A stretch of DNA of 50,965 nt from a virus (lineage: Duplodnaviria; Caudoviricetes). Below the pieces are notes generated by a model, which was not told the origin of the DNA, did not search any database, and saw only the letters and a list, made by a program, of their open reading frames with translations. The stretch covers positions 1-50,965 of the IMG/VR virus record IMGVR_UViG_3300037420_002479, one strand, 5' to 3'. A program made the position numbers and the translations under genes. Numbering within the stretch: position 1 is the first letter of the stretch; the number at the start of each line of letters is the position of its first letter. Positions 25,501 through 44,042 of this stretch are shown here, piece by piece.

Positions 25501-28500
25501 CCATTGCAAGCGGCACGTCTTGAGGCTGAGCTTGCATCGAGAAGCATTGGGTCAGGTGCAACAATTCAAGGGTTGACTAGCGATCGGGATATTGCGATCG
25601 TGGGTCGGGCGCAGAGCAATGCTGAGAAGTTCGATCAAAAAGCAGCCCGAATTCAGCGTAGTCAGGACAAAGTATTTGCCAAGCAGGTTGATCCGCTTCA
25701 GGGCGGTGGTGAGGATGCAGCATCACGGCTCAAGGGCACGATCGCGAAGGAAGCGGGCGACTATGCTAAGGCGGCGAATGAAAGCCTCAAGGCACTTGGC
25801 GTCAATCTTCCAGGCATTGGTAAAGCGTTGTCAGGATTGTTCTCAGGTGGAGCATCTGATGGCTTTAGCAAGATCAATGGTGGCTTAAAGTTCCTCGCTC
25901 AGAATGCAGCGATCGCGATTAAGGGATTTGTCGCGTTCCAGGTTCTATCTACTGTTGTGCCTGCTATTCAGCAGTTTGCAACCGAATCAGTTAACGCAGC
26001 AATCAAGTTAGATAACCTTAAGACCGCCCTCAGTTTTGGCTCAGGTGGGGCGAGCAATGCTGTCAAAGATTTAGCATTCGTTCGAGGCGAGGCAACACGG
26101 TTAGGGGTGCCGCTGTCTTCCCTGCAAGATGGATTCGTGAAGCTCTCGGCGTCTACCAAGGGCACCTCAAGTGCTGGGCAAACCACGAAAGATTTGATTA
26201 CGGGGTTAGCTCAGGCGTCTACCACCTTGGGGTTGAGTGCTGAAGAGTCGGGCGGAGCAATTCTGGCGTTGTCTCAAATCGCCAGCAAGGGTTCCGTCCA
26301 AGCCGAAGAATTGCGGGGTCAGCTCGGTGAGCGAATTCCAGGGGCTTTTGGCATTGCGGCTAGAGCGATGGGTGTTACCGAGGGGCAATTAAATAAGCTC
26401 TTAGAAACGGGTTCAGTCACGGCGGATGAGTTTTTGCCGAAGCTCGGAAGGCAGTTGCAGATCGAATTTGCGGGTAGCGCCGAATCTGCCTCAAAGAACG
26501 TTCAATCGTCCTTTTATCGGCTGGGCAATTCGTTTCAGCAGTTACAGGAAAAGACTGGAAAGGTGTTTACACCGAATACCTTTGCAGTTGATGGGGCGGC
26601 AAAAGGGATTGATGCTCTTGGTAATAGCCTAGGCGTTGTCATTCCTTCCGTCATCACGTTTGGCTTAGTGTTGGGCGTTCCGCTTCTAGCTCCATTGTTT
26701 GAAGCCGTGACGGGCATGGGTAGAGCGAAGATAGCATTGGATGCTTTGGGGAAAGGCTTTAACGCAGTTAAAGGCAATATTGGCAGTCTTGCGCTAAAAG
26801 CCGGAATTTCGACGATCGCAACTCTTGGTGCAATCGAAGCGGGTCGAACGATCGGGGAAGTTTTCAGCCTGGACGAGGAAGGCAAGCAGTTTGAGGATCT
26901 TGGAAATAAAGGGCAGCAGAATCTAGAGCGGATTGCAGAAGCGGCGAAACGGGCGAAGGGTGAAATCGATAAGGTTTCTGAGCCGAAGAAGTCCACGTCT
27001 AAAGGCTTTGATTTTACCCTCGGCTTAGCAAGCGCTACAGGGCTAGATCAAACGGGTTTTTCGCTCAAATCTGACGATCTGATCAAGCTTAACAACAAGT
27101 CTTCGATCTCTGGATTTATTCCAGGCTTCAAACCATTTGCAGATTTCGCTGGAAGATTCAGCGATCCAATTGCGCAGATTTCATCACGACTCACAGGAGG
27201 ACGGTTTGAATTCAGACCTGGAACCACTGTTGAAGAATTGCAGCAACAGCGTGACCAAATCAGTTTCAACCGCTTTCTTGACCAAGGAAACAATTTAGCC
27301 CAGCAAGCGTTTAGCGGTCAGATTGATGTCACGGGCAAAGATGGCAAGCGTCAGCAAGTCGATATTGGCACGTCGCTGAAAGACCTTAAGGCAACTGACG
27401 ATCGTATTCAACAACTTCGCAACGAACGAGGTCAAGTTGCCTCACAACCCAAGGCAGATAAGGTTCGTGTCGGGAGGATTGATGATGAGATTCAGAGGCT
27501 TACGACGGAACGGGCACAAAAAGCATCTCCGCTATTAGAACTGCAAGCCTCAATTCAATCAAAAATTAGCGACGATCAAAACCTACTGAAAGATGACAAG
27601 CTGTCAGGATCTAGAAAAGATTCGGTAAGAAGCGAAATTCAGGGCTTGGAGAACGCTCAAGCATTGTTGAATCGCCTGCAAAATCGCTTTGAAACTGCTG
27701 CTGATACGGTTTCAGATTTTAAGGCGGCACTCAACGCTATGAACGTGGAGCTAGAGCAGGCGAAGCGAAACGCAGACCTAAAGTTCAGTATTGATACCAC
27801 GGGTGATATCAAAGCTCAAATAGAGAACTTCGGTAGCGACATCAACGCAAGTATCAAGGCTCCAGTTCAAGCCGCAATTCGAGAGGCAGAGAGATCTCAA
27901 GCTCAACTAGAAGATAGTCGTGCGGCAATTGAAAGGGCTGAGAAGAAGGCTCAAAAGCCAGGTGTTAAGTCGGCTTTAGACAATATTCGCACCTCAACAG
28001 GTCAGTCGATTTCGCTTGATTCAAGCGTTAAAGAGTTGGAGGATGCGAAAGCGGCGTCTGGTCAGGACGAAGCTAAGAAAAAGCTGATTGATGAATTAAT
28101 CGATCGGAAGCGGGCACTCGATCAAGAATCTGAGCTAGAGCAAAAAGCTTCAACAGATCGACTTAATGTTCGTAAGGCTGAAGAACAGGCGAAACTGGCT
28201 TTGATTCAAAAAGCTTCAGCAGAGCGTGAGTCGCAGATTAAACGTGACTCCAACACAGCCCAAATTGGGTTGCTTCAGAAACAAAAAGCTGGAAACACCT
28301 ATGAATCTGATATCCAGGTTGAGAATGCGAAGCAGACGCTCTCGAAAGGTCAAGCTGAACTGGACAGCACCAAGCAACAGTTAGATGCGATCGAGTCTGC
28401 CTACGCTGCCAATCAAATTTCTGCTGAAGAGTATGAGAAGCAACGCAGGGAAATCGGCGACCGCATCAGCGATCAGGAAGTTCAAAATGCTCAGAATGAG

Positions 28501-30234
28501 GTTGCCTTAGTCAAAGCAACCGAGCAGGCGAAATTATCTGAACTCGATCGGGCGGCTCGTAAGCGTGAAGCCTCTATCAAACAAAATGACTCACGGGCTA
28601 CCGCATCACTTGTCGGAGACAAAACGAACGGTTTAGTTTCCGACGATGTATTCTCAATTGCCCAAGCCAAAAACTCACTCACCACGACTAATGCCCAACA
28701 GTCCAACGTTCAAGCCCAGTTAGACGAGATTGAGCAGGCTTACGCCCGTGGGATTGTCAAAAAAGAGGAATACGAAAAACGATCGCAGGATTTGACCAAT
28801 AGCCTTGCTGATTTATCTGTGCAGAAAGCGCAGAACGAACTCGCTCTGAGAGAAGCGATCGACAAAAAAGCGATTGAATCTCAGAAGCGGTTGTTAACGG
28901 GCACTGGGTTGGATCAGGGGTTGCTTGGGAACCAAGGGCAAGCTGCCCTGATTGGTATCGATTTAGCGGTGTCTCAGAAGCGACTGGGCAAGCAAGAAAC
29001 CGAAGCAAGTAGTCTTCAGCAGCAGTTAACCGAAGCGAGCGGGGCGGTGAATGCAGGCGGAGATATCTTTGCTCAATTTGATAATGCCAAGAAGGTTGGT
29101 AGCGCGAAGGAGATTGAAGAGAGGCTGAACCGTATCACCGCCAGTTCTAGCGAGGAACGGACTAAGATTCGGGAGCTGGAACTGCAACGGGATCTTAAAC
29201 TGATTCAAGCTCGTGCTGAAGCCGAGGAGCGAGAACTAGATCGAAAGAAATCGGCTTTGGATTCTGAATTGAAGTTGAGCCAAGCGATCGCGGATTCTCG
29301 CCAGAGTCAATTGAAAATTGGTATCGATCGTAACGGCGAATCGGTTGACGCCTTCAAACAGCTTCAGGGTAAAAATGCCGGATATCAACTGAGTAAAGTT
29401 CTGAAGGATCAGTTGACTGAAGCAGGCTTTAATACCTCAAATACCCAACAAGGGGTGATTGACGCTCTGCAAAACAAACAGGCACTGGAGGCTGAAGCTG
29501 ACAGAGAAAAAGTAGCGGCGTTGTTGCAGCAACAGGCTCTAGAGCGAGAATCAGTGAAGCTGGGTTTACAGAAAGAGCAAATTAGCGCTCGGACTGCATT
29601 AAATGAAGCGAAGCGAGTCAAGGCACTGGCGAAACTGAATCTTGCTGAGGCTCAAGGGGGACTGGCTAAGGCGCGGCGTTCTGGCAACGCAGACGAGATT
29701 CAATCGGCTCAAGAGCAGCTTAAATTTGCTCAAGAGGCAGTGGGACTGGCAGGGGAGAATAAGGGGTTAGCTGAACTCAACGTGCAGTCCGTTGACAAGC
29801 GGGTTCAGAATGAGCTTGCAGCAAGCGATTTTAGACAGGCACAGCAGCGCTCTGAACTGGATGCTCAGAATCAAGCTGCTTACCGGGCACGTCGCCGTGA
29901 AGCTGCTTCGACTGCCGACGAAGTTAAATTTACAGGTCAGCTTAATTTCGCTAACGTCGCACCAAGCGCTGTTCTGCAAGCTCCTGAAACGACTGGGCTA
30001 CCGTCCATTGTTCCGACCGTGACGCCCAACACGAATCAGGTAAGCCAAACAGTCAGCACAGCGGCTTCAACGACAAACAATGCCGATGTAGTCGCCAAGT
30101 TGGAACAACTGTATACCGGGATCATTGAGTTGGCGAATAAGCCTCGTTCTCTCACCTTCAACACAGCTCAACCTGTGGACGATTATGCGAAATTCATGAA
30201 TGATGCCGCAGGCTCTAGCTTGCGTTCTCAGTAA
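19585..30234 (+). CDS. Tape measure protein, 3549 aa, multidomain
   Basis: Tape-measure domain (ALSQIASKGSVQAEELRGQLGERIPGA), long coiled coils, two HExxH regions. Confidence 0.92.
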   Translation: MTEIAGTLGIELVLLRDGFKRDLQALQSLKGGQIALQAVLDTRLLRQQINNLSQLKPTIQAQVAITNLNQVESQLKTLTRDRRIRVGIELDGAGLDRLEARLGQLGNRSVRVGIAVDDSAIDRLNGKLNALSDRVVRVGVAIDESGLTNLEKRLGQFSNKSFRVTAQVDDRQLTALNKHLDLKQKHFTQVNNYFKSSPLTPRVDFSGLDALDRRLNDFKNRSIDIKANIADVRQSISQLKQELSGIEIPVTVRTANGVASSATQTISPKIDSSSIESAITKALDNSFKGFEKNLEGAFKKVGKGNILGGLGDILTAPLKLATGAIGSVFSGVGLGVGQQISKDLGKGISEGIDAQLAPIIGSFRLVGRELASSLVKELVDSLGQDATLVQGVIQDLVGKDNILVESGAVRSRQKQQQQKNTVEATRFFQNEAESANVSQLQAERQKLGGQFAAVQELKANTAQKTEAAANKLGAGKVKQNIEQASAQLKQNQETAATLNKQINSEIGGIESARKSLSQLKSSGTADASQIAEVESGIAQKTAKLSQLQSELGTTTSSSKQIAERITRLTDSLAEINRTAESYFREEVERITEIEDKLSVAQRKLEQKLQPFEAIESLGKIRTPESIGAEVQARKQNISGLQGKQSQLRASAKVDSTAIDELRQARNQELQVPDALQDKDKIQSIERRIIQIQERQAKRKALYNDIGKAIAQEETQLRSLDAQSAQPIAVQARASGLNASLSQLAQDEAELNRLAQEALAKGDEARARRLLAGKKQAQEDQQALRSKLALLGVAPAEVKKTAAKPAETRPADQSKALPASLQSILEETAALSGVEIPKGKAPRLVVSDSIQGTGQYDSDTNTVAVSSQVAKQAFQGKLTEDMVETFVHEFRHAVQSAFGQIDALTQGSATPLLQPTAEELANAPIVRGRTLAQRIEGSAANVAERNPNVSRDRTEKPARLLEADAYTFAARNTSQVFQKVGKDAAIADTLQLSGIGGQKIRDAYKSLQSVVGEVGSTAKAAGLNIAKELNQEVADIAQIGGRLKPLIAKLGELDVLPADEIRQVQQQFEVELAEIEQAKSRLRGVLANAQQDRAIDVAVQNPLDSTVDPEALQGFIERKIAASSQGAVNPKYQIADPFEPPKSLQKRAQEFGQSASNAAGKAKNFIFNPDREVTIDVDKLSNFAQKAGGVARGGIETGKNVASAVQSVATSQPVQAVLGATGGAVKALGAVAKTSYQLASGLESIALDMIPLGRTIKGVTKQLVIPAAGFAAATHLLPGGAIAAEGLSHLVGGAITPLTQAAGGAASASASSLIAQAIPQTATLFGHTVPNVLAPAAAPITSAVTGAIQGLSASVGEMAVQAGTVILGGKLLQGTVGKAGEAALKSALPQESNTRALPAASTRALPPVREKSGTVAVTANAVSPQVEIAPTFEQFTKPQLLAATRKLGIQGTNTKTSKDDLVERLKGFRNQSQVDQVLTQVQSEIGRDGKPIAGFNPAAEKAALKQFQKAEKDLHRKLEQLAKASGKKRETLLNEILSGIDEQTAAIDAAKAQNFSGETVKQLSGIQGRLRNAGNNNPALVDARNERITTIRSAAVDSQNARIRGLARVAIEEAEPATATLGTTLKEGFRKLTNFAAKQFEVQPQPTIKGTLGAIAKSPKARDLATDLAVNGAGFAASQLGSQFGILPELTGDLGGALIARQLISRGRPSAKDLTGDLAGFAIGNTTAKIANAGLDALSGVVPGAGLLRALPFKGAIAASLTVPKVTKAAEQFQQSPIEGLARAQTPTGFTGLVDKFRSLLPNNERKLAQIQRNYESIYREIAAVSGAAFDPANIPKLSIDNKRLKQLGAQAYFEIEQNLITIDREIANALAKPANELSKYTDKLTGLIHEGRHSIQLDGGRLSIDQAAASGQLANGDKLSIDQRAQVEKSVDVARKQGASAQQLESVRKLETDAYAFEGNAGQIVSKASRPDPLQAARLEAELASRSIGSGATIQGLTSDRDIAIVGRAQSNAEKFDQKAARIQRSQDKVFAKQVDPLQGGGEDAASRLKGTIAKEAGDYAKAANESLKALGVNLPGIGKALSGLFSGGASDGFSKINGGLKFLAQNAAIAIKGFVAFQVLSTVVPAIQQFATESVNAAIKLDNLKTALSFGSGGASNAVKDLAFVRGEATRLGVPLSSLQDGFVKLSASTKGTSSAGQTTKDLITGLAQASTTLGLSAEESGGAILALSQIASKGSVQAEELRGQLGERIPGAFGIAARAMGVTEGQLNKLLETGSVTADEFLPKLGRQLQIEFAGSAESASKNVQSSFYRLGNSFQQLQEKTGKVFTPNTFAVDGAAKGIDALGNSLGVVIPSVITFGLVLGVPLLAPLFEAVTGMGRAKIALDALGKGFNAVKGNIGSLALKAGISTIATLGAIEAGRTIGEVFSLDEEGKQFEDLGNKGQQNLERIAEAAKRAKGEIDKVSEPKKSTSKGFDFTLGLASATGLDQTGFSLKSDDLIKLNNKSSISGFIPGFKPFADFAGRFSDPIAQISSRLTGGRFEFRPGTTVEELQQQRDQISFNRFLDQGNNLAQQAFSGQIDVTGKDGKRQQVDIGTSLKDLKATDDRIQQLRNERGQVASQPKADKVRVGRIDDEIQRLTTERAQKASPLLELQASIQSKISDDQNLLKDDKLSGSRKDSVRSEIQGLENAQALLNRLQNRFETAADTVSDFKAALNAMNVELEQAKRNADLKFSIDTTGDIKAQIENFGSDINASIKAPVQAAIREAERSQAQLEDSRAAIERAEKKAQKPGVKSALDNIRTSTGQSISLDSSVKELEDAKAASGQDEAKKKLIDELIDRKRALDQESELEQKASTDRLNVRKAEEQAKLALIQKASAERESQIKRDSNTAQIGLLQKQKAGNTYESDIQVENAKQTLSKGQAELDSTKQQLDAIESAYAANQISAEEYEKQRREIGDRISDQEVQNAQNEVALVKATEQAKLSELDRAARKREASIKQNDSRATASLVGDKTNGLVSDDVFSIAQAKNSLTTTNAQQSNVQAQLDEIEQAYARGIVKKEEYEKRSQDLTNSLADLSVQKAQNELALREAIDKKAIESQKRLLTGTGLDQGLLGNQGQAALIGIDLAVSQKRLGKQETEASSLQQQLTEASGAVNAGGDIFAQFDNAKKVGSAKEIEERLNRITASSSEERTKIRELELQRDLKLIQARAEAEERELDRKKSALDSELKLSQAIADSRQSQLKIGIDRNGESVDAFKQLQGKNAGYQLSKVLKDQLTEAGFNTSNTQQGVIDALQNKQALEAEADREKVAALLQQQALERESVKLGLQKEQISARTALNEAKRVKALAKLNLAEAQGGLAKARRSGNADEIQSAQEQLKFAQEAVGLAGENKGLAELNVQSVDKRVQNELAASDFRQAQQRSELDAQNQAAYRARRREAASTADEVKFTGQLNFANVAPSAVLQAPETTGLPSIVPTVTPNTNQVSQTVSTAASTTNNADVVAKLEQLYTGIIELANKPRSLTFNTAQPVDDYAKFMNDAAGSSLRSQ

Positions 30235-30322
30235 GTCAGGAGTTCCAGACTACTGATGACTGAATGAGTGCCAAAATTTTACAATAGGGGTGTATAAGTA
30301 GAACGGTTTGCCTAGAGTAACC

Positions 30323-30880
30323 ATGTCAATTGAGTTTCGGTTTCATCCAGAAAAAGCTGTTGAAGCCGCAGCGACACTTCTAAAGCTGCATGGTAAGCCT
30401 ATGAAATATCTAGGCTTACTTAAGATGCTTTACATTGCTGACCGAATTGCATTAGAACGCATAGAGCAACCAATTACAGGTGATCACTACGTATCAATGA
30501 AGTATGGTCCTGTTCTTAGCGGTGTCTATGACCTGATCAAGGGGAAGCCGGTTGATAATGCCTTGCCTCTCTGGTCTAAATTCATTTCTCATCGTCACAA
30601 TAATTACGTTCGTCTACTGAATGATCCAGGCAACGAAGAACTCTGTGAAGAGGAGGAAGAAATTCTTCGGGGGGTTTACAAAATCTTTGGTCATATTAAC
30701 CCTTTTACTGTTGCCGATTGGACTCACGGTCTTCCAGAGTGGGAAGACCCTGGTAAGTCTATGAACCCAATTGCAGTAGAAGACGTTCTCAAGAACTTGG
30801 GTAAAAGTGACGAGGAAATTGAGGAAATTGAGCAAGAAGCCCTACGAGAAGCGTATTTAGATAAAGTTTTGCATGTCTAG
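30323..30880 (+). CDS. Panacea (DUF4065/SocA/GepA) domain antitoxin-like protein
   Basis: LLKMLYIADR...ITGDHYVSMKYGPV...WTH.LPEW. Confidence 0.85.
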   Translation: MSIEFRFHPEKAVEAAATLLKLHGKPMKYLGLLKMLYIADRIALERIEQPITGDHYVSMKYGPVLSGVYDLIKGKPVDNALPLWSKFISHRHNNYVRLLNDPGNEELCEEEEEILRGVYKIFGHINPFTVADWTHGLPEWEDPGKSMNPIAVEDVLKNLGKSDEEIEEIEQEALREAYLDKVLHV

Positions 30881-31262
30881 CATCACCATTAATTTGGGGG
30901 ATGCTTTTCTGATAGATACACCTCCCACTGGCGAACATCTCTATATCGCCATTGCCCAAACTTCTGCAAGCAACTACCTGTTTGTCAATGTAACTACTCG
31001 GAGAAATAATTCCGAAACTTCTTGCATTCTTCAACCGGGTCCAGATGTGCCCTGTTTTATTACTCGTGAGTCTGTCATCGCCTACCAATTTGCTCGCGAT
31101 ATGGACGCTGCCCAATTAGCCTCATTGATTACTGTTGGCAGTCCTATTCCAAAAGGGCGTTGTTCGATGGCTGTTCTTGCACAGATTCAGCAGGGTGGTC
31201 TAGCCTCCAAACGCTTAACGAACAAGCACAAGACAGCTCTTAAATCCTTCTTAGGGGTTTGA
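30873..31262 (+). CDS. Putative toxin partner of the Panacea protein (PemK/MazF-like topology suspected)
   Basis: Overlaps the antitoxin stop; GDAFLI...HLYIAI...VNVTT...FITRESVI pattern. Confidence 0.5.
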   Translation: MSSITINLGDAFLIDTPPTGEHLYIAIAQTSASNYLFVNVTTRRNNSETSCILQPGPDVPCFITRESVIAYQFARDMDAAQLASLITVGSPIPKGRCSMAVLAQIQQGGLASKRLTNKHKTALKSFLGV

Positions 31263-31302
31263 TTTCAGCGCTAAACACCGCAGACCCTTCTTTCCGCTCT
31301 CA

Positions 31303-31388
31303 GTAGGAATTCTGGGGCAGTTTGAGCGCTGCCCTGTATGACCCGCACTTTAGTCCTCAAGCTCGTTGCAGCGCGCCGTTCAGTTTAA
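31303..31388 (+). pseudogene. Truncated duplicate of the promoter and first 7 codons (MTRTLVL) of the distal tail gene at 43557
   Basis: gtaggaattctggggcagtttgagcgctgc...atgacccgcactttagt is nearly identical to 43521-43573. Confidence 0.85.
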
Positions 31389-32418: not shown

Positions 32419-32421
32419 ATT

Positions 32422-33201: not shown

Positions 33202-33202
33202 T

Positions 33203-33922
33203 GTGCTGTTTGCGCTGATAAGTCTAATAAAGGATTGGGCACCCTGGGTTCTGCTTGCCTCGTTTCCATCAGTGCTCAATTTGGTAATTGCTGTTCAAGA
33301 CCTGCAACGAGAAAGCAAACGATTACCTTTCTTTAACCCGTGCGCCTGTTGGGGTTTCTGGATTTTTTGCCTTGTGCAGCTACTGCTACCTGCAATTGCA
33401 TTTTGGCTGTTCTTTTCAATTGACAAAAAGCCGTCAATCGACCTTGTACTTTATATTAAAGCTGGTCTGTTTGGTGTTGGCTTCAATGCCTTCGTTAATA
33501 ACTCAGTACAAGTTGGACCGATTGGGTTTAATGTCAAGGCTTTCTATGATGTGTTTATCGGAATCGCGATTGAGATGATTCTGGCAAAAGAGGCGAGCCG
33601 CACCGCTATCTTCTGGGCAACGCTGACAAGTGAGTTTAGTAACAGTGATACCAAGTTTGAACCAGCGCTGGATTTTTTGACCCAATACGTTAAAACAAGT
33701 GCCGCTCTCGACAGCTCGTTAAAGAGCGATGCCCGTACTAGCATAATGCAGCAGCACGAAGAACTAATAAAGACTGCGAAAAGAAAGAAGTTAGCACCTC
33801 AGAAAGCTGATGCAATTGTCAATGCAATAAAGCAAATTATTAGGCGATGCGATTTGCCTCATGCCTTGCATGAATTTGGCTGCACACAAACTTTAGACAA
33901 ATGCTTTAAGAAAAAACCTTAG
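33203..33922 (+). CDS. Hypothetical membrane protein (N-terminal TM helices plus soluble C-terminus)
   Basis: 3-4 hydrophobic segments; coupled to upstream ORF. Confidence 0.65.
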   Translation: MLFALISLIKDWAPWVLLASFPSVLNLVIAVQDLQRESKRLPFFNPCACWGFWIFCLVQLLLPAIAFWLFFSIDKKPSIDLVLYIKAGLFGVGFNAFVNNSVQVGPIGFNVKAFYDVFIGIAIEMILAKEASRTAIFWATLTSEFSNSDTKFEPALDFLTQYVKTSAALDSSLKSDARTSIMQQHEELIKTAKRKKLAPQKADAIVNAIKQIIRRCDLPHALHEFGCTQTLDKCFKKKP

Positions 33923-33987
33923 TGTTCTTAAGGAGCAGTTTCAGAAAATGTCAAGACAACGCTTATGAATCCTCTGCCAACCCGCTC

Positions 33988-34287
33988 TTAGTCCTCCCAA
34001 ACCAACTCTCGCCAGTTGGGAGGAATTAAGCCTTTTCTGAGTGCCTTGAAGACAAGTCCTTGATGACTTCGATCTGCTCTGAGTGTATGGCAGATCACGC
34101 ACAGCGTTCTTAAGTTTTCATCGATATTCATTCCTCCTTTGCTTAAAGGTGTTTTGTGATCAATGTGGCAGTCGTTGAGATTGACGGGTGTGTTGCAGTG
34201 TTGGCACTGACCACGATCGCGGTCGTAGATGCGCTGTCTTGTCAGTTTCCAGATTTCTCTGGGTTGTCTTCTGTGTTTCCTTGCCAT
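33988..34287 (-). CDS. HNH endonuclease (99 aa); start ATG lies inside the last array tract
   Basis: CQHC...HIDHKTPLSKGGMN...NLRTLCVICH. Confidence 0.9.
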   Translation of the reverse strand: MARKHRRQPREIWKLTRQRIYDRDRGQCQHCNTPVNLNDCHIDHKTPLSKGGMNIDENLRTLCVICHTLRADRSHQGLVFKALRKGLIPPNWRELVWED

Positions 34288-34615
34288 GCCTTGCCGTACC
34301 CTAACTGACCGCGCCGAGACCCACCGCGCCAAGACTCACCACACCTGACCAGACCTGACCCGGACGCACCAAGCCTAGTTGCGACTGATAGCCGCTTTAA
34401 TATGAGTTCTGTATAATCCTTGCCTTGCCAGAACTCGCCTCACCGCACCTGAACACGCCTTGACCCGCCTTACCGAGCCGCACCATGCCTGATTGCGACT
34501 GATAGTCGCTTTAATATGAGTTCTGTATAATCCTTGCCTTGCCTTGCCAGAACTCACCGCGCCAGAACTTAACGCACCGCGACTCGCCGTACCGCGCCTT
34601 GCCACGCCAGACCGC
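34278..34615 (-). ncRNA. Putative guide-RNA array: three (GKY-NN)n tracts with 16, 14 and 19 internal NN units, separated by two 41-nt constant repeats
   Basis: Strict 5-nt periodicity; constant repeats 34490-34530 and 34376-34416 are 38/41 identical with a GCGAC-TATCA-GTCGC hairpin; NN strings decode to TMP segments. Confidence 0.85.
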
Positions 34616-34621
34616 GTGAAC

Positions 34622-35239
34622 CTATGCCGCTTTCTTTAGCTGTAGTTCAGCCACATCAAACGACACAAGTTCAAACCTACCATAGCCAACGGAACGCCCG
34701 TCAGCGATGCCCGTAAATCGACCCGCATCAATGACAGCAGCTTCCATCTCACCGCGAGAGACGATCGTTTTATCCCACTGAATATGAAAGCTGGCTGTCC
34801 ATCCAGACGATGCGCCGATACGATAGCGGAGATTTCTTGCCCGTGTGCTTGGGTTTCTTACGCCCTGAACATCCAGAAACACAGGCAGTTCAGGATTTTG
34901 CTCAGGGATCTCTGGAACTCGCAACACCTCACCGTCGCGCTCAATGAAGATAAAATCTTCTTCAACTTGCAATGTTGCAGAAATGAACGGCTGCAATGTG
35001 CCACGTTTACGAGGGGTGTGTTTTGCTCCATCTCTAATGGCTGCAAACAAATAGCTCGACTTGACGTACAGCCTACGATCGCTAGTCATCAAAACGGTTT
35101 TCTTCCATTCTTCAGGATCGTGCCCTGCTACCCCTGTTTTCTCTTGCTTTTCCAGTGGTAGTGCATCGGGTCCGAAATGATGCCATAGCATGGCTCGAAT
35201 GCCAGAAATTTGAATGTTAGCTCTGAGAATATTTGCCAT
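34622..35239 (-). CDS. Stand-alone Cas7/RAMP-like protein (putative guide-RNA-binding effector)
   Basis: N-terminal beta strand and loop, LYVKSSYLFAAIRDGA helix, C-terminal Gly-rich loop GIADGRSVGYGRF; directly upstream of the array; no other cas genes. Confidence 0.75.
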   Translation of the reverse strand: MANILRANIQISGIRAMLWHHFGPDALPLEKQEKTGVAGHDPEEWKKTVLMTSDRRLYVKSSYLFAAIRDGAKHTPRKRGTLQPFISATLQVEEDFIFIERDGEVLRVPEIPEQNPELPVFLDVQGVRNPSTRARNLRYRIGASSGWTASFHIQWDKTIVSRGEMEAAVIDAGRFTGIADGRSVGYGRFELVSFDVAELQLKKAA

Positions 35240-35261
35240 GATGTCTCCTGAAATATTGTGT

Positions 35262-35723
35262 TTAACCCAACTGATACACGCAAATCTGCTCTGCCCTCTC
35301 TAGCCCCAGCTCTTGCAGAATGGAGTCTGCGATCCGATGAGGAAATTGAGTGAGGGAGAGTTCAACCTGATTTGCAAACACACCTAAAAAGCGAGATCGT
35401 CCAAAGGTGACAACTGCCTCCTCAATCAAGGCGTCCAGATTGCGAATGATAGGAATCAACAGATCGATCTCATCACCGCCACCCTGTAAACCGTCTTGAA
35501 CGTAGCGGATTAGAGGAGCGGCTTCAGGAGGTAAACAGGAGTGTTTCAGAACTAACTCTGTGTCAATGAGATCAAGACAGTCTTTCGCGAGTTCTCTAGC
35601 CGCTGTTTCTGCCTGCTCTACGGTAGACACAGCGTATTCTTTGCCGTTGATGAGGAAGCACGTTAAGCCGTAGAAATCATCTTGAAGCTTTCGGATTTCC
35701 GTTCTAGTTGCTGTAGTTACCAT
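35262..35723 (-). CDS. Hypothetical protein in the Cas7-like operon
   Basis: 153-aa ORF co-oriented 22 nt upstream of the RAMP gene. Confidence 0.65.
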   Translation of the reverse strand: MVTTATRTEIRKLQDDFYGLTCFLINGKEYAVSTVEQAETAARELAKDCLDLIDTELVLKHSCLPPEAAPLIRYVQDGLQGGGDEIDLLIPIIRNLDALIEEAVVTFGRSRFLGVFANQVELSLTQFPHRIADSILQELGLERAEQICVYQLG

Positions 35724-35795
35724 GACTTGCCCTAGTTCCAGGATGGGGATGTAGCGATCTGGACAGTCACCCGTTTGGGTGACTGTCGTAAGGCT

Positions 35796-36110
35796 TTAAG
35801 CGATCGGGCGAACTTTCTTTAGGGCTAACTCAAACGCGCGGCGATTGTAGGCGTGTGTTGAATTGCTGTCTGTGCAATGAAACACAGCATCCTCTACCAA
35901 GGACTCGATCGAGAGTTCAAGCCAGGTAATGAGAGCTTTCTGGATATCCTCACGACGATATTCAGTTCCTTGCTCAAAGGCAAGATTCGACTGAATCACG
36001 AGGGCAGATTGAAAAAGTTGAGTCTGGATAGCGTCGTTGTCTAGGTAAAGGCTGAAAGTATCCGATTCAACAGACTGAACTTGTGGCTTAGATTCAAGAG
36101 TTGTTAACAT
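35796..36110 (-). CDS. Hypothetical protein, first gene of the leftward operon
   Basis: 104-aa ORF downstream of the leftward promoter. Confidence 0.65.
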   Translation of the reverse strand: MLTTLESKPQVQSVESDTFSLYLDNDAIQTQLFQSALVIQSNLAFEQGTEYRREDIQKALITWLELSIESLVEDAVFHCTDSNSTHAYNRRAFELALKKVRPIA

Positions 36111-36187
36111 TGTTATTGGTTCAATAAAGGACTTTCAAGAAAGGCACTGTCTCTGATTGGCGTTGGTGACAGTGCCTTTCTGTATTC

Positions 36188-36256
36188 AATCTAGCTAAAA
36201 CGTACAACATTGTCAATAAGTAAATAATTGACAATCCGTACAACAATTAATATGAT
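36188..36256. promoter_or_regulatory. Back-to-back sigma70 promoters with CGTACAACA boxes in both spacers
   Basis: + strand TTGACA(36228)-17-TATGAT(36251); - strand TTGACA(36216)-17-TAGATT(36193); CGTACAACA at 36201 and 36237. Confidence 0.8.
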
Positions 36257-36289
36257 GACCACAAGTTGATAAAGTTTAAGAGGTCAAAA

Positions 36290-36637
36290 ATGTACGGGAT
36301 TCTTAGTCCGCCGATTAACGTGGTTCCTCTGTCCAAGCTTAGGCAAGGTCTTTCGCGCTATCGTCGTCAAGTTCAAGGCGGCGAGGTGGTTCCTGTGGAC
36401 TACTACAAAGACCGTATAGGCTACTTAATTCCGCTTACCATTGCCGAAACGCTACAGTTCTCGTCAGAGCGGGAGTTGAGCCTAATTGAGTTCAGAGACG
36501 ACCTTAATTCAGCTTGGGAGTCGATCGATTCTGGTACTGATTGCATTTGGTTGACTTACCACGGTGAGCGACGTATCGCCTTTGTGTCAACCAGGGTCTA
36601 TCAGCCTGAAGAGGAGAGTACGGACAGCCAGCAATAA
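36290..36637 (+). CDS. Tandem Phd/YefM-like DNA-binding protein (putative repressor)
   Basis: Two repeats of the Phd-like pattern (VPLSKLRQGL...; LSLIEFRDDL...LTYHGERRIAFV). Confidence 0.55.
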   Translation: MYGILSPPINVVPLSKLRQGLSRYRRQVQGGEVVPVDYYKDRIGYLIPLTIAETLQFSSERELSLIEFRDDLNSAWESIDSGTDCIWLTYHGERRIAFVSTRVYQPEEESTDSQQ

Positions 36638-36693
36638 ATTCCTAATCGCAAAGCTAGAGGTTTATTGCTGAATAAGGTATCAGAAGCAATTAA

Positions 36694-37227
36694 TCAGTTG
36701 ACAGGCTCATAAGTGAGAACGCAGAACGGATTAGAGGAGAACTCTTCTCGCTTAGACACAATTGGATGACTCTTGGCGGTCGGAGTGTCACCTACTGCTT
36801 GCTGAATCTGTCTTACCGACTCCATCACTTGAGCACCTTTTCGGTTGAAATTGTCCCAAGTTCGCTTATCCGACTCAAACAACTCATTCGAGTTCCAGAC
36901 TTTAAACTTCCAGGTGTGGTCAACAGTTACCCCACCGATACTTTTTTCTTGAATCTTCACAGCTACGAGATGATACTTCGCTTCTGAATCTCGTCCGTCC
37001 GTCTTCGTTTCTTTTCCGATAACCTCCCACTTCTCCACTGCCTGCAAAGGCTGCTCTACTTTGGGGGACTCGTTCGCATGACATCCAAACTCTTTCTGCT
37101 TCTCGCTCTGCCCACTTTTCACAGTCTCCAGATATGCATTCACAACGCTCTCCGGACTTGACGCATTCTGACATCCGAACAGGGATGATACAACGATCGC
37201 GCACAGCGCAAATCGAACCAATTTCAT
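36694..37227 (-). CDS. Lipoprotein
   Basis: Signal peptide with lipobox LFGC. Confidence 0.75.
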   Translation of the reverse strand: MKLVRFALCAIVVSSLFGCQNASSPESVVNAYLETVKSGQSEKQKEFGCHANESPKVEQPLQAVEKWEVIGKETKTDGRDSEAKYHLVAVKIQEKSIGGVTVDHTWKFKVWNSNELFESDKRTWDNFNRKGAQVMESVRQIQQAVGDTPTAKSHPIVSKREEFSSNPFCVLTYEPVN

Positions 37228-37350
37228 TGTGTTTTCTCCAAGGGGTCGGCTTTAAAGTCCCCAAAAATCAAACAGCAATCGCTCTCCCCTTGGAAGTTAG
37301 AACGATCGCTGCTGTACCCCACCTACCGTTTTACCTAGAGGTGAAGCCTT

Positions 37351-38118
37351 ATGGAATTCTCGCACGAGCGAGCCATCGCTCTAGTCCGCTCAACTGAAGA
37401 TTTCCCGGTAGATTTTGATGACGCTTGGCAATGGATCGGCTACTCCACCAAGCAGATGGCTCGAAAGAAGCTAAACAACAATTTCGAGCACGGAGTAGAC
37501 TTTTTAATCAAGGGATTAAAAAGCTCTCAGGGAGGACGATCTAGCGAACATATTGTTCTTACGATCGACTGCTTTAAGTCTCTTGGCATGATGGCAGGTA
37601 CTCAGAAAGGGAAAGAGATTCGACACCACTTTCTAGACTGCGAACGTCAGCTTAAAGAAGTACTGTTATCGACCGCTCCCGACCCCATCGCCACAGCCTT
37701 CAGCATTGCAGATCACTTCCGGTCATTGCTTGCCAACGCAGGCATCGACCCCGCGATCGCCACTCTCATCGGCTTGAAATACATCGAGCGTCAGCTTCCC
37801 CAGCTAAAGCCAGAAGTTGAGGAGAGCCGCGAATTGATCGGCAAGCATCACGCCTCAGACAGTCACTATCTCACCCCAACTGAATTGGGACAGCAAACGG
37901 GCAAGAAAGCGAAAGACATCAACATCGCCCTAGAGCTTGCAGGATTTCAGGTCAAGAAATCAGACGGCAAGCACACTCGATGGGATCTGACCGACACAGG
38001 TAAGAACTACGGCAAAGTATTTCTCGCTGCTGCCCAAACAAGTCGCTGGTCAGGGGGGCAAGTGAAATGGAAGCCTGACGTATTGCAAATTCTAGGACTG
38101 GAGGTAAGCCATGTCTAA
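37351..38118 (+). CDS. Phage antirepressor-like protein
   Basis: FPVDFDDAWQWIGY...LTIDCFKSLGMM...GKEIRHHFLDCE N-domain; LTPTELG...W.LT..G C-domain; GAGG RBS. Confidence 0.78.
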   Translation: MEFSHERAIALVRSTEDFPVDFDDAWQWIGYSTKQMARKKLNNNFEHGVDFLIKGLKSSQGGRSSEHIVLTIDCFKSLGMMAGTQKGKEIRHHFLDCERQLKEVLLSTAPDPIATAFSIADHFRSLLANAGIDPAIATLIGLKYIERQLPQLKPEVEESRELIGKHHASDSHYLTPTELGQQTGKKAKDINIALELAGFQVKKSDGKHTRWDLTDTGKNYGKVFLAAAQTSRWSGGQVKWKPDVLQILGLEVSHV

Positions 38119-38392
38119 TGTACCTGTAAATTCAAAGCTTCAGGCATTTGAGCAGAAACTAAAACAACTCATTGAGAATCCCGACCCCAAGCCCAAATAC
38201 GAACTCTGGCAAATCGTTCGCTGGAAAATAGCTGATTACAAGGAGGAAGATCAAGGCAGAATTGCAGGCTTCTACTTCATATCGGTTGGAATTGCCTTTC
38301 AAGATGCCTCTGAGCCGGGTTGGTACTACCACATTGAGGACGGCTACTGTCATGCCATTGTCCACGAAGACAGCATTGTAGGAGCAGTATAA
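38111..38392 (+). CDS. Hypothetical protein (SH3-like, DUF1392-like)
   Basis: PKYELWQIV...G.IAG...GWYY pattern shared with the next ORF. Confidence 0.55.
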   Translation: MSNVPVNSKLQAFEQKLKQLIENPDPKPKYELWQIVRWKIADYKEEDQGRIAGFYFISVGIAFQDASEPGWYYHIEDGYCHAIVHEDSIVGAV

Positions 38393-38442
38393 GGACGCTT
38401 GCTGCGTCTTCAGTTTTCATCCACTAACCATAGGTAAAAGCC

Positions 38443-39231
38443 ATGACTTTAAGCGCCACTGTTTCAGCAGTAAAGCTACAAATTCCGATCGCCCGATCGT
38501 CCGATATCCCGGCTCCAAAATTCGCCTTTAATCAGCGTGTCCAGTGCAAACACGGCGAAGGCATCATTCGGGGACTGGAGTATATGAATCAAGAAACGGC
38601 TGACATTCACAACTTTGATGGCGTTGGCTGGTGGTACATCATTTTGCTCGATGAGGACAACCCAGCGTACCAACAGACCCCAACGGTGAACAGCGCTGAA
38701 GATGAGATCACATCATTGCAAACCCCCAAGAGTGACGTGAAAGCCTTTTATTTATGGCATCTCAGCCGCTCCTACCGGGGCTATGTCGTGGTTCCAATCC
38801 AAGAAGGCGATACCTATCGAGTGGGCGTTTTTAATCCGGTTGGAGACGCTTTAAACCTGCCGACAGAGCAGGTAGAGCGGACACAAAGGGTATGGCTTCA
38901 AGGGCAAGATGCCATTGACCAAGACATTGAGGCATCCACTTGGCACAGTGATCCGCGTCTGATTGCTCATCTCACCTCTGCTGCTTACATTCGGGGTCAA
39001 CGTCGCTTCGATACCCTGAAATATGAACTACACAGCCTGATTGAGCGTTGCACGTTGCCAGAAGTGCTGGATCGGCTAGCGGAGTCGGTGTTTGAGCAAT
39101 CTCGCTGTGAGAAAGATGAGCCGACAAAACGAGCCTGGATGAACCTGGAAATTCAGATCCAGAAGGCAACAGAAGTGGCACTGTTAGCGGTGAATCTCAA
39201 GGCTGAACAACGTCTGGATTTATGGGGGTAA
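38443..39231 (+). CDS. Hypothetical protein with DUF1392-like N-terminus
   Basis: PKFAFNQRV...GIIRGLEY...GWWY. Confidence 0.6.
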   Translation: MTLSATVSAVKLQIPIARSSDIPAPKFAFNQRVQCKHGEGIIRGLEYMNQETADIHNFDGVGWWYIILLDEDNPAYQQTPTVNSAEDEITSLQTPKSDVKAFYLWHLSRSYRGYVVVPIQEGDTYRVGVFNPVGDALNLPTEQVERTQRVWLQGQDAIDQDIEASTWHSDPRLIAHLTSAAYIRGQRRFDTLKYELHSLIERCTLPEVLDRLAESVFEQSRCEKDEPTKRAWMNLEIQIQKATEVALLAVNLKAEQRLDLWG

Positions 39232-39263
39232 TTCAATAAATTCAGCTTGGGAACGTAGATCGT

Positions 39264-39296
39264 AAAGAAGGGTAGCTCTAGGGTTGCCCTTCTTTT
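39264..39296 (+). terminator. Rho-independent terminator
   Basis: AAAGAAGGGTAGC / GTTGCCCTTCTTTT stem. Confidence 0.7.
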
Positions 39297-39401
39297 GATC
39301 ACATTCCTAACCTGTAATCAAATTATCAACCTAGTCGACTACACTAGTTGACATAGGGTTTCCGATTGCATTCGGAAGCAACGCTCTGGTCAAGCGGATT
39401 T

Positions 39402-39992
39402 ATGTCTATCAACACCCGGAAAAAGCTGACTTTCGAGGAATATTTGTCCTATGATGACGGGACAGATAATCGCTATGAGTTGGTAGATGGGGAGTTAGTT
39501 GAGTTGCCACCGGAATCCGAGCCGAACAGCGCGATCGTAGACTACCTCTTTCTCAAGCTGGTAGAGATGGGAACTCCGTTTCGCCTGATTAAGCGCCACA
39601 CTTGTGAAATTCAAGTTCCCGTTCTGCAATTGGGCGATGCTCAGAATCGATTCCCCGATTTAGTTGTGTTGAGACACGAGCATCTAGCTCTGACTCGAAA
39701 ACGACTCACGATTAAGCTAGACATGCCTCCACCTCAGCTAGTGGTTGAAGTGGTAAGTCCAGGGCAAACCAACCGCGATCGAGACTATAAAAGCAAGCGT
39801 GAGCAGTATCAGCGCGTGGGGATTCCTGAGTATTGGATTATCGATCCCGAACATCAGGCGGTCACGGTCTTAAAGCTTGAAGTCAGCCAGTATATTGAAA
39901 TTGGCAGTTTTAAGGGTAGCGATCCCATTATTTCCGAGGCTTTCCCTCAACTGATGCTGACGCCAGCAGAAATCTTTGCAGAGGCAGATTAA
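39402..39992 (+). CDS. Uma2 (DUF820) family PD-(D/E)xK protein
   Basis: RYELVDGEL, RFPDLVV, LVVEVVSPG, RDY..KR..Y...GIPEYWIIDP. Confidence 0.92.
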   Translation: MSINTRKKLTFEEYLSYDDGTDNRYELVDGELVELPPESEPNSAIVDYLFLKLVEMGTPFRLIKRHTCEIQVPVLQLGDAQNRFPDLVVLRHEHLALTRKRLTIKLDMPPPQLVVEVVSPGQTNRDRDYKSKREQYQRVGIPEYWIIDPEHQAVTVLKLEVSQYIEIGSFKGSDPIISEAFPQLMLTPAEIFAEAD

Positions 39993-40008
39993 TTACTCCT
40001 TAGTGCCT

Positions 40009-40242
40009 TCAGGGTAGTGAATTTGCCCACTCTCTTGCTGATTCAGGGGAGTCGATAGTCCTTCCTTCCTGAATCCATTCTTCGACTAGTTCCTCTATCC
40101 TATGCTTCTTGCCATATTCTCTGGCAATTTCGACGTACTGATTCACCGAGTCCCTGGTCATACGACTTTGAATTGAATATTCAACAGCATTTAAAACCTT
40201 CTGGCGATCTAAGTGCCGTTGAGGATATGAGTTTGTGGGCAT
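40009..40242 (-). CDS. Hypothetical protein downstream of an inverted TMP end
   Basis: 77-aa ORF with AGGAG RBS. Confidence 0.6.
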   Translation of the reverse strand: MPTNSYPQRHLDRQKVLNAVEYSIQSRMTRDSVNQYVEIAREYGKKHRIEELVEEWIQEGRTIDSPESAREWANSLP

Positions 40243-40278
40243 AAAGCAACTCCTACTTCACAGTGTCCAACACTAACA

Positions 40279-40331
40279 CTAAGTCCCTCTCAGTGAAGCG
40301 CCCGCTGCATCATTCATAAACTTAGCGTAGT
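40279..40331 (-). pseudogene. Inverted third copy of the extreme TMP 3' end (YAKFMNDAAGASLRGT*)
   Basis: Matches YAKFMNDAAGSSLRSQ* (30234) and YARFMNDAAGQSLRSN* (42554). Confidence 0.85.
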
Positions 40332-40850
40332 GTACGAACCCACCGGGGTAAAGCATTGAGGTCGATCGATTCTTTCAAATACGCTTATACTACTGGCTTA
40401 AATCTTGATTCTTGGAGTTGTACAGTGCCTTTAGACGGACAAGTCAGACCTAGCGAGGATTTAGAGCGTCATCTACAAAGCTCAATTCCGCAAGTCCAAC
40501 GGAAATTTCAAGCTCGTGCAACGGAGCTAAACCTGAAATACTGTGAGTTTGATGACTCGTCCCCAGTAGAGGTGGTTCGCAATTCTGTCCTGCCTGGGGG
40601 CATTCAATCCTTCACTGCAACGATCAAATTAAATGTCAGTACGTTCGATGGGAGCCAGCCGAATCGAGGCGTCGAGGAGATCGAGGACTGGTTCGACAAT
40701 TTCCTTTGCGCTTGGCTCTCGTTGCGGAACGGTTTGAGTTCTCAATCGAGCTTGCCGGAATTGAGGAGAGAGCGGGAGTTAAAGCAGTGGAATCAGGTTC
40801 CCACTTGGACTGTTCAACTGCGACGGCAATTCGATTTGAGATCGCCCTAA

Positions 40851-42554
40851 TCGGCGAAGCTGGCTGAGATTGAGCGTTCTGCCCGTAAGCGTGAGGCTCA
40901 AATTAAGCAGCAGGAATCACGGGCAACGGTTGGGCTAGTCAGTGACAAAACTCGCAAGTTAGTTTCTGATGATGAATTCTCGATCGCCCAAGCGAAAAAC
41001 TCTCTCACCACCGATAACGCTCAGCAGTCCAATGTTCAAGCGCAGATTGATGAATTAGATACAGCATTTGCCCGTGGCATCGTCAAACGTGAGGAGTATG
41101 AAAAGCGCAGTCAAGATTTAGCCAATAGTCTTGCTGACTTGAACGTGAAGAAGGCTCAAGATGAACTGGCAATTCGAGAAGCGATCGATAAAAAAATACT
41201 GGAGTCTCGTAAACGGCTTATCACGGGCACTGGACTCGATCAGGGATTGCTTGGGAATCAAGGGCAAGCCGCATTGATTGGTGTTGACATCGGTGAATCG
41301 CAGAAACGGCTCTCTGCTCAATCGGCAGAATTAGGTAATTTACAGCAACAATTGCAAGCAAGTTCTGCTCCCATCGAGGGCGATATTTTTGCTCAGATTG
41401 GTGCAGGCGATCGGGTGGCTCAAGCGAAGGAGATTGAAGAACGGATCAACCGGATTACGGCGAGTTCTATTGAGGAACGGACTAAGAAGCGTGAACTCGA
41501 ACTGCAACGGGATCTCAAGCTGATTGCAGCGCGGGGTGAAGCTGAGGAGCGAGAACTTGATCGCAGGAAGTCAGCACTAGACGCTGAATTGAAGCTATCC
41601 CAAGCTGTTGCGGATTCTCGCCAAAGCCAACTCAAGGTAGGTATCGATCGTAACGGAGAATCGGTTGATGCGTTTAAACAGCTTCAGAATAAGAACGCTG
41701 GATATCAACTGAGCAAGGTTCTGAAGGATCAGTTGACTGATGCGGGATTCAATACCTCCAATACTCAGCAGGGAGTGATTGACGCTCTGCAAAATAAACA
41801 GGCATTGGAGGCAGAAGCTGATAGAGAGAAGGTTGCGGCATTGTTGCAGCAACAGGCTCTAGAGCGTGAATCAGTCAAATTGGGCTTACAGAAGGAACAA
41901 ATTTCAGCCCGTACCGCCCTCCTTGAAGCCAGGCAGGTTGAACTGCTTGCCAAGAAAAACTTGACTGAGGCTCAAGGGGGACTGGCTAAGGCGCGTCGCT
42001 CTGGCAACGCAGACGAGATTCAGTCTGCACAAGAGCAGCTTAAATTTGCTCAAGAGGCAGTGGGATTAGCGGGAGAGAATAAGGGACTGGCTGAACTCAA
42101 TGTGCAGACGGTTGATAAGCGGGTTCGCACTGAACTACAGGCAGAGGACGTTAAGCAGGGTCAGCAGCGGTTTGAGCTGGATGCTCAGAACCAGGCGAAT
42201 GGTAGAGGGCGTCGCCGTGAACTCGCCTCAACTGCCGATGATGTGAAGTTCACGGGGCAACTCAATTTTGCCAACGTCGCACCGAGTGCGGTTCTGCAAG
42301 CCCCTGAAACGACTGGGTTACCGTCAATTATCCCAACGGTTCAGCCGAATACCAATCAGGTCGATCGAACGGTGAACACGGCGGCATCAACGACGAATAA
42401 CAGCGACGTGGTTGCCAAACTAGAGCAACTCTACAACGGCATTATTGAACTGGCGAATAAGCCACGGAGTCTGACCTTTAATACAGCTCAACCCGTAGAT
42501 GACTACGCTAGGTTCATGAATGACGCAGCGGGGCAGTCGTTGAGGAGTAATTAG
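40851..42554 (+). pseudogene. Orphan 5'-truncated TMP C-terminal copy (about 567 codons, open frame)
   Basis: Frame is open from 40851 (SAKLAEIERSARKRE...) and colinear with TMP 28525-30234; no convincing start at the homology edge. Confidence 0.88.
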
Positions 42555-42555
42555 G

Positions 42556-42587
42556 TCGTACAAGTGCGAATATTCGCACTTGTACGA
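42556..42587. repeat. Perfect 32-bp palindrome TCGTACAAGTGCGAATATTCGCACTTGTACGA
   Basis: Self reverse-complementary; lies between convergent stops. Confidence 0.9.
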
Positions 42588-43441: not shown

Positions 43442-43556
43442 AGGAGAGAACTCAACTCATACCTAAATTTTAGTCTATGTGTACATAGGTTATCAATGGC
43501 GTCTTTCATGCATCTACAAAGTAGGAATTCTGGGTCAGTTTGAGCGCTGCTGCCCT

Positions 43557-44042
43557 ATGACCCGCACTTTAGTTCTGTCGATCGACACCTTTAATCTCCC
43601 CCTCTCACGCTTTGCCCAGAATGGGTATGAGCGAATTTTGGGACCCACGGGAGAAACCGAATATTCGCTCTTTGGCAGTCCGATCGACGATGGCAATTTG
43701 TATGAAGCAAAGCACGTCTGGACGCTTCAAACCTACGTCTCGATTGAGCAGTGGCGCATTTTGTGGGCAATTTTCCAGCGCAGTGAGCGGCATCGGCGCA
43801 ATCAACAAGACTATCGCATTCGCATCTCTGACTACGTTCTGCCCTACGTTGAGGACGCCACGACTCCTAGCCGATTAGTCGCAACCGATGGAGCCATCAC
43901 CACGATCGACGGTGGGGGCATCGCCTATCCTGCGGTCTACTCGGTTCGGATGTTTGAGCCAAAGGCAGAAGAAATCGGCAACACGCAATACCGCTATCTC
44001 GCTCGGTTTGTGCTGAAAGAGTTAGACCGGGTGACCGCATGA
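43557..44042 (+). CDS. Distal tail protein-like (putative)
   Basis: First structural gene after the TMP end; ATG 43557 follows AGGAAT motif. Confidence 0.6.
   Translation: MTRTLVLSIDTFNLPLSRFAQNGYERILGPTGETEYSLFGSPIDDGNLYEAKHVWTLQTYVSIEQWRILWAIFQRSERHRRNQQDYRIRISDYVLPYVEDATTPSRLVATDGAITTIDGGGIAYPAVYSVRMFEPKAEEIGNTQYRYLARFVLKELDRVTA

Follow-up and report, generated by a model that had tools for sequence, protein, structure and literature searches.

A tape-measure gene breakpoint within a VIPR guide site of a cyanophage: a candidate scar of RNA-guided homing

VIPR systems have been described as silencing satellites or prophages, and their nuclease-bearing types have been read as host defense located in defense islands (10.64898/2026.04.26.720920; 10.64898/2026.10.15.759431); structures are presented in a further paper (10.64898/2026.04.26.720927). 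An HNH accessory protein has been described for VIPR, and its equation with type III follows by inference from the legends of Figs S20-S21. Phages also possess homing endonucleases of the free-standing kind. In phage T4, SegF, SegG and MobE carry out “intronless homing,” with cut sites lying far from their own genes (PMC2988022). While VIPR, its HNH-bearing types, free-standing homing and homing by TnpB are each already known singly, the word “homing” is absent from the VIPR paper (main text and supplement PDF), from the main text of the satellite paper and from a third preprint covering VIPR arrays, and a search conducted mostly outside subscription journals recovered no paper joining VIPR with homing.

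The stretch of DNA analyzed here (the window) is a whole virus record of 50,965 bases with phage head and tail genes detected by Pfam; the closest relatives found were prophages of Myxacorys cyanobacteria and IMG/VR contigs. Between its tape-measure protein (TMP) gene and the next conserved tail gene (gene X) lie an island and then a second copy of the TMP 3′ end (Table 1). Within the island, a cassette resembles VIPR in its RAMP-fold Vipr of about 200 aa, its YNNGG arrays with a tail, the wobble-aligned 1-nt-skip code, the phage location and the targets in other phages. It also has an HNH accessory gene, and type III is a tentative label for it drawn from figure legends. In contrast to the published systems, the nuclease-bearing cassette is here found in a phage and targets a homolog of its own neighboring essential gene; further, it lies beside a codon-switched allele of that gene and is accompanied by gene breakpoints inside the target sites.

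Several parallels are offered by other mobile nucleases. As in free-standing homing endonuclease systems, the nuclease gene of the cassette is intergenic and close to conserved essential genes, with the presumed cut site lying hundreds to thousands of bases away (PMC2988022, PMC10448857), and with a resistant own allele and co-conversion of flanking markers, both predicted here, and tape-measure, terminase and capsid neighborhoods as further shared themes (homing endonuclease gene islands, PMC10448857; PMC2988022). However, specificity in those systems is encoded by the protein, whereas here a set of several RNA guides that can be exchanged would confer it; an orphan is not left behind by standard repair but is present at this locus; and cleavage and inheritance bias have been demonstrated there, whereas here they are predicted (PMC2988022). 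TnpB/IscB (OMEGA) of IS200/IS605 elements are likewise RNA-guided nucleases that bias the inheritance of their own element via break-stimulated recombination (10.1101/2023.03.14.532601, 10.1101/2023.11.20.567912, 10.1101/2025.02.20.638934). These are single-protein RuvC/HNH effectors with contiguous guides that act on a vacant insertion site next to a motif, in contrast to the RAMP filament, gapped guides, separate HNH and targets inside a neighboring gene predicted here, with no transposase found in the island. The TIGR-Tas systems are also phage-borne RNA-guided nucleases that include an HNH form, and a bias in the inheritance of mobile elements has been suggested for them; they differ in employing Nop-domain proteins and dual-spacer guides, and their natural targets were not identified in that study (PMC12045711).

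Table 1. Positions of the features discussed, in window coordinates
Feature	Positions	Strand	Basis or remarks
Intact TMP gene, 3549 aa	19585..30234	+	ORF; Pfam PF20155 E 6e-29; guide scores 19/24, 18/22, 21/32
Guide-2 site in resident TMP	26275..26307	+	18/22; perfect 22/22 in L045
Guide-3 site in resident TMP	26440..26487	+	21/32; 29/32 in L045
Guide-1 site in resident TMP	28504..28539	+	19/24; perfect 24/24 in L001
Panacea/SocA-domain antitoxin gene and partner ORF, 3′ of intact TMP	30308..31262	+	ORF, Pfam
Stub: last codons of older TMP and first bases of gene X (copy of 43520-43576); extra junction	31279..31357	+	
HNH nuclease gene, 99 aa, directly 3′ of guide array	33988..34287	-	PF01844 E 2e-9
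Three vrRNA guide arrays, YNNGG units	34279..34616	-	g1 34616-34532, g2 34492-34418, g3 34378-34279
Vipr gene, 205 aa, predicted RAMP/Cas7-like fold, C-terminal glycine-rich loop	34622..35239	-	
Island cargo	35262..39992	.	Pfam, comparison with Myxacorys island
Inverted remnant, last 53 nt of a third TMP allele	40279..40331	-	
164-aa ORF in frame with orphan, ended by TAA where intact alleles have GAA/GAG	40356..40850	+	
Junction zone; TMP homology begins between guide-1 units 5 and 9	40842..40854	+	
Orphan TMP 3′ end, open frame 566 aa, no own start at junction	40854..42554	+	
Gene X, intact copy, next conserved tail gene (start ~43479-43560)	43479..44042	+	ORF

The predicted structure of Vipr (pLDDT 79.8) recovers chains of the Csm/Cmr CRISPR complexes as its best Foldseek matches (E 5e-8), and the residues G173-G177-D180-G181-R182-G185-G187-R188-F189 are invariant. 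As no cas genes are present among the Pfam matches of the window, it is a stand-alone RAMP protein with a glycine-rich loop outside a CRISPR locus, recognized as Vipr by fold and layout. Counting end units that look like scaffold, the three arrays have 17, 15 and 20 units, against the 9-16 YNNGG units and conserved 3′ tail of VIPR guides; the tail is repeated after the first and second guides and folds back on the last array units. Since the guides have GAGTTCTG in common and this pairs with CAGAACTC of the tail, the fifth dinucleotide of the orphan match (GA) and the later units of guide 1 are probably scaffold and not programmable. We scored 12, 11 and 16 programmable units for guides 1-3, with the boundary inferred from the shared, tail-pairing last units of guides 1 and 2. 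When read by the published 1-nt-skip rule, each guide has its best non-self match within the window on the sense strand of the TMP gene and in codon phase, beginning at 28504, 26275 and 26440, respectively; skips of 0, 2 and 3 gave no better non-self match in the window for any of the three. The skipped base thus falls on the wobble position, and perfect in-frame matches are found in relatives.

The HNH protein retains D43, H44, N58, H67, C28, C31 and C63, which are invariant in 21 homologs, pointing to an intact active site of the kind expected of a homing endonuclease. Complex prediction for Vipr and HNH gave a score of 0.33 versus 0.01 for the best control (partner pLDDT of at least 82; runs agreeing in at least 94% of contacts); in the calibration of this score, at ≤0.60, 18 of 157 solved pairs attained the mark, as did 2 of 215 mismatched pairs. 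This lends weak support to the idea that the Vipr filament might recruit HNH.

Outside the cassette, the island shares 35262-35723, 38111-38392 and a Uma2 gene (39366-39992) with the Myxacorys island; a 72-nt imperfect palindrome (39243-39314) lies 5′ of the Uma2 gene, and a perfect 32-nt palindrome (42556-42587) directly 3′ of the orphan stop. Toxin-antitoxin-like pairs directly follow the TMP stop in three phages (window 30308-31262; L044 12573-13248; L045 12881-13556), the Panacea domain being detected by Pfam in the window only and the pairs of L044 and L045 being judged by eye. Farther upstream, a match to group I introns (Rfam RF00028, 91 bits; 16891-17118, plus strand) at the end of the ORF 16256-16918 apparently splits a tail gene, and a match to the cyanobacterial small RNA NsiR1 (RF02399, 41.9 bits with a cut-off of 39; 19472-19530, minus strand) lies just 5′ of the TMP start. 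Related tail genes are present in 5 of 401 genomes of the cyanobacterial phylum and 5 of 90 genomes of the order, and four distant cyanobacterial genomes with such genes, when inspected, had neither Vipr nor an orphan. Scans with gene X recovered two viral loci already known and one short metagenome contig of the L001 type.

The guides spell TMP sites of related phages. Guide 1 has a single exact match among 2.9 million IMG/VR contigs, in the TMP of the sister phage L001. The 70.5-kb record of this phage (82% complete) yielded no match to Vipr or the cassette, and only one short gene lies between its TMP and gene X. The earlier note had proposed that island-free relatives should retain an intact guide-matching site joined to a 3′ end of the type now stranded at 40854; L001, with its perfect site, no detected Vipr and orphan-like 3′ end, agrees with this. 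Among four relatives the best matches of guides 1-3 are 24/24, 22/22 and 29/32, the latter two in L045, and 0 of 200 shuffled guides reach these values. Guide 2 has 41 exact viral matches, and the 10 listed all represent a conserved tape-measure motif. Hence, at the sequence level, the target lies in a conserved neighbor gene of element-free relatives, and the carrier has an allele predicted to be resistant, as in homing endonuclease systems.

This resident allele mismatches all three guides, agreeing at 79%, 82% and 66% of the bases in programmable units. At 8 of 8 positions where it encodes the same Leu, Ser or Arg as the guide, it uses the other codon family, where its own codon usage would predict 3.2 such cases (P 3.8e-4, assuming independent codons); elsewhere in conserved stretches, such switches relative to three relatives amount to 22-28%. 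Apart from family switches of Leu, Ser and Arg, no silent change affects codon positions 1 and 2. Because the guide code skips the wobble base, silent escape is available only through these switches, and they are what the resident allele displays. It therefore looks like an escape allele, putatively resistant at all three sites. Two of the three guides accordingly resemble the published systems in having no self-match at 80% or above, the VIPR paper giving no self-hit at that threshold (10.64898/2026.04.26.720920).

The second TMP copy is an orphan 3′ end: 40853-42532 aligns to 28527-30212 with 74.7% identity over 1691 nt, with no identical run longer than 36 nt. Its open frame includes an internal TTG start, which would give 471 aa (41139-42554, plus strand). 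The earlier note placed the start of this copy within the guide-1 target, and indeed it coincides with guide unit 9. That note also counted a guide match of 10/10 in the orphan against 8/10 in the resident gene; the count is right, but with GA probably belonging to the scaffold, four programmable units remain, giving 8/8 versus 6/8, or 11/12 versus 10/12 with one more guide-1 unit included. A full match to units 9-12 is likewise present in L003 and L045, despite the mismatched left halves of their sites, and therefore the 8/8 match alone is no proof that the parent of the orphan was sensitive. On the 3′ side of the junction, the orphan is nearer than the resident allele to two intact alleles whose site fits the guide, those of L001 (81 versus 76%) and of the intact protein P0122 (90 versus 82%), and it is 98% identical to the latter over resident aa 3000-3149 (three successive 50-aa windows). 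In protein-level comparison, the guide-1 site of P0122 reads ALVKATEAAKLS, with Ser at unit 12.

Immediately upstream, 40842-40853 matches an intact sister allele at 8 of 12 bases (P ~0.003). All four mismatches fall at codon position 1, and one of them generates the TAA that ends the in-frame upstream ORF, for which no homolog was found among 24 candidates. Given this 8/12 match, the break lies between units 5 and 9, inside the site, and cannot be assigned to a single base. As the three guide sites make up 117 of the 10,650 nt of the TMP gene, a TMP break would fall in any of them with a chance of about 1.1%.

The hexamer GGCGAA is common to 28527-28532 and 40853-40858, and the earlier note took both places as junctions of an event that replaced only the 3′ end of the gene. 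This part is not supported: 28527 is merely the position homologous to the orphan start, because the departure of the resident allele from the guides (units 2 and 8 of guide 1 and the sites of guides 2 and 3, 2 kb upstream) and its divergence from the closest intact relative of the orphan (32-67% identity over aa 2301-2900) already extend upstream of it. The mismatched allele reaches upstream by 2.2 kb or more, and at least three junctions are found in the interval, including at least two (31357, 40331) beyond the junction zone; therefore, several events built the interval.

Integrative elements such as e14 and phage 21, which insert in icd, use an integrase and a shared att core to enter a coding gene, which they provide with a new 3′ end. 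The window shares with them an old 3′ end stranded beyond inserted DNA. We rejected att-site integration at GGCGAA, as no integrase was detected by Pfam in 30234-40853 and 28527 is not a junction; in such elements host-type sequence would lie upstream of a left core, whereas here the replaced allele extends kilobases upstream of the orphan start. A collapsed-repeat artifact was likewise rejected, given the divergence of the two copies.

A second candidate scar is found in L044, a prophage of Myxacorys chilensis, where a related island (Vipr, two guides, HNH and Uma2) occupies the same interval between TMP and gene X. This island is inverted relative to that of the window and lies in the opposite orientation to the L044 TMP. 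Both of its guides spell the TMP family of the prophage, the own allele scoring 18/26 and 20/26 and relatives reaching up to 25/26 for the first guide. Before gene X is a 48-nt orphan TMP end (20448-20495), whose start at 20448 corresponds to unit 7 of the second guide: from there 13 of 14 bases match, versus 1 of 12 before. Alone among the seven sequences compared, this orphan fully matches units 7-12 of its guide, as none of the six other TMP ends does. Thus, as the earlier note had anticipated, the junction of another island carrier falls within the site of its own guide. For a remnant shorter than 100 nt, the prior probability that its start falls within a 39-nt site is high.

Remnants of TMP ends are common in this phage group, with five seen in four loci, of which only that of L044 fits a known guide. 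The remnant of L003 (about 14400-14490) starts upstream of the site of the second L044 guide, two others are stubs of ~10-25 nt (window 31279-31305; L045, 13830-13883), and the inverted remnant of the window starts within the site of the second L044 guide without fully matching that guide; the last may be the trace of an earlier cut or of the island having been inverted. The old TMP-stop remnants directly before gene X in the window (31279-31357), L045, L003 and L044 suggest that the two genes once abutted and that cargo repeatedly entered via the TMP 3′ end. Further, at the TMP stop of L003, L044 and L045, 3′ remnants of HNH genes lie antisense in a tail-to-tail arrangement, suggesting that a cassette once stood there and was then lost.

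A single-protein Vipr scan of viral contigs found no relative, and the guide-tail pattern had no matches in them; an alignment-based scan recovered 40 viral Vipr loci, reduced to 37 on dropping three near-duplicates. HNH follows vipr in 29 of these 37. Considering guides long enough to score, 8 of 40 guides from HNH loci (8 of 18 loci) near-match their own locus beyond shuffled controls (p<0.02; binomial 1e-6), with no equal score for those eight guides in 36 other loci, versus 0 of 21 guides (0 of 6 loci) from HNH-less loci (Fisher p 0.04), a contrast confounded by the HNH-less loci also forming a more distant Vipr subclade. Of the eight matches, two fall in a tape-measure gene, two in neck genes, one each in a tail gene and a major head gene, and the remaining two in unnamed ORFs; weaker matches involve a further tape-measure gene, terminase and portal genes. 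In eleven distant loci (L005, L008, L010, L013, L014, L015, L016, L019, L022, L025 and L034), VIPR-HNH cassettes are embedded among head and tail genes that their guides near-match, the guide of L022 covering the last codons of the terminase gene adjoining its array. No orphan copies of target genes were found in 11 distant loci inspected, which is the outcome predicted if two-ended repair usually proceeds cleanly and a scar is exceptional.

In cellular genomes, Vipr matches are present in 11 of 90 genomes of the cyanobacterial order. Chromosomal units of vipr, a short guide and HNH were seen in L048 and L052-L058, with CRISPR-like arrays near several of them (L055 9184-9580, L056, L058), while in L111 a vipr unit lies upstream of a four-gene operon whose first ORF encodes 949 aa. 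In L108, a CRISPR array with Rfam DR37 repeats (11300-11916) directly precedes a distant prophage tape-measure gene, and an HNH-like ORF is found near 13173-13352.

Taking together guides that spell TMP sites, perfect sites in sister phages, a mismatched carrier allele and two independent orphans that start in the site of their own guide, we propose that the junction is the scar of an RNA-guided double-strand break, and that the cassette spreads like a free-standing homing endonuclease; we put the probability of this reading at roughly 0.6. The Vipr-guide complex would bring the HNH nuclease to the guide-matching TMP of a sister phage, and the sensitive genome would be cut during coinfection or infection of a lysogen. 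Usually, the carrier would serve as repair template for both ends, so that the mismatched allele is copied together with the cassette linked to it and no scar is left. In the present case, homologous repair would have been confined to the upstream end, at a point well upstream of the guide-2 site, with the downstream end joined to island DNA by a nonhomologous or microhomologous route, stranding the old 3′ end. Within this proposal, guided cutting is likely and drive, in the sense of biased inheritance of the cassette, is plausible. The proposal is weakened by there being only two scars, by the fit of just one of the five TMP-end remnants to a known guide and by an interval that is not the product of one clean event, as is indicated by its at least three junctions and the inversion of the island relative to L044.

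The strongest competing explanation, which we nevertheless consider unlikely, is guided cutting without drive, wherein the effect of the cassette is to kill or exclude sister phages and the scar arises incidentally; for instance, an island arriving in a sensitive phage might have led to self-cutting, with the survivors taking up a resistant allele. Such rescue would leave the same scar, a mosaic interval with several junctions agrees with it, the four first-position changes at 40842-40853 could reflect later erosion of a self-target, and the VIPR paper reads the nuclease-bearing types as target destruction (10.64898/2026.04.26.720920). Yet killing needs no target near the cassette, whereas the targets here and in the distant loci are neighboring structural genes, and the HNH remnants at the TMP stop of three relatives hint that a cassette was gained and lost there more than once.

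Two further alternatives appear improbable to us, and about equally so. In the first, Vipr only binds, silencing the sister gene, and breaks and joins accumulate at the site because replication or transcription is held up by the bound filament, with HNH not being the cutter. Silencing is indeed the sole activity shown for VIPR (type II) in the accessible text, and the Vipr-HNH complex score is weak; against this, HNH with intact catalytic residues follows vipr in most of the viral loci and own-locus near-matches are confined to loci with HNH. In the second, cargo cassettes routinely swap TMP 3′ ends independently of guides, and the location of the join in the site is a coincidence or was brought about by short, imperfect homology within a conserved stretch. 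The gene-end remnants, most of which have no tie to a known guide, fit such traffic, as does the position of the site in a conserved stretch (84-86% versus 32-60% upstream), and the 8/12 similarity just upstream of the orphan could represent microhomeology. However, the ~1.1% chance for the window orphan and the unique guide match of the L044 orphan argue against it, and it leaves the codon switches unexplained. Finally, an assembly chimera of two related phages in one soil metagenome is highly improbable: one DNA run, possibly the source, and no RNA run were listed as containing the stretch, and the DNA run yielded three short contigs, none bridging the junction and none on 39900-41900, but the two copies are 75% identical with no identical run beyond 36 nt, the join is to nonhomologous DNA, the same layout recurs in the independent genome L044, and the index of that run holds 208 of 208 sampled words of 39800-41800.

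More broadly, phage VIPR-HNH cassettes may represent widespread programmable homing endonucleases, in which a gapped-guide Cas7-like filament cuts conserved genes for tail and head in sister phages and drives the cassette with its cargo and a codon-switched, resistant allele into the population, the orphan ends mapping the in vivo cut to units 5-9; we regard the odds of this generalization as even. The breakpoints in guide sites would then be the first genomic sign of DNA cutting by a nuclease-bearing VIPR and would predict where it cuts, and the system, with its 205-aa protein, 99-aa nuclease and short guide, would be a very small programmable cutter. The guide, its perfect sister target and the codon-switched own allele make up a ready, matched test set, and the locus displays how a target might silently escape a wobble-skipping code by switches of the Leu, Ser and Arg codon families. 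If the programmable-homing reading is true, RAMP proteins would have had an origin in selfish spread before CRISPR immunity, and we offer such spread as a reason why RNA-guided RAMP systems may have persisted in viruses.
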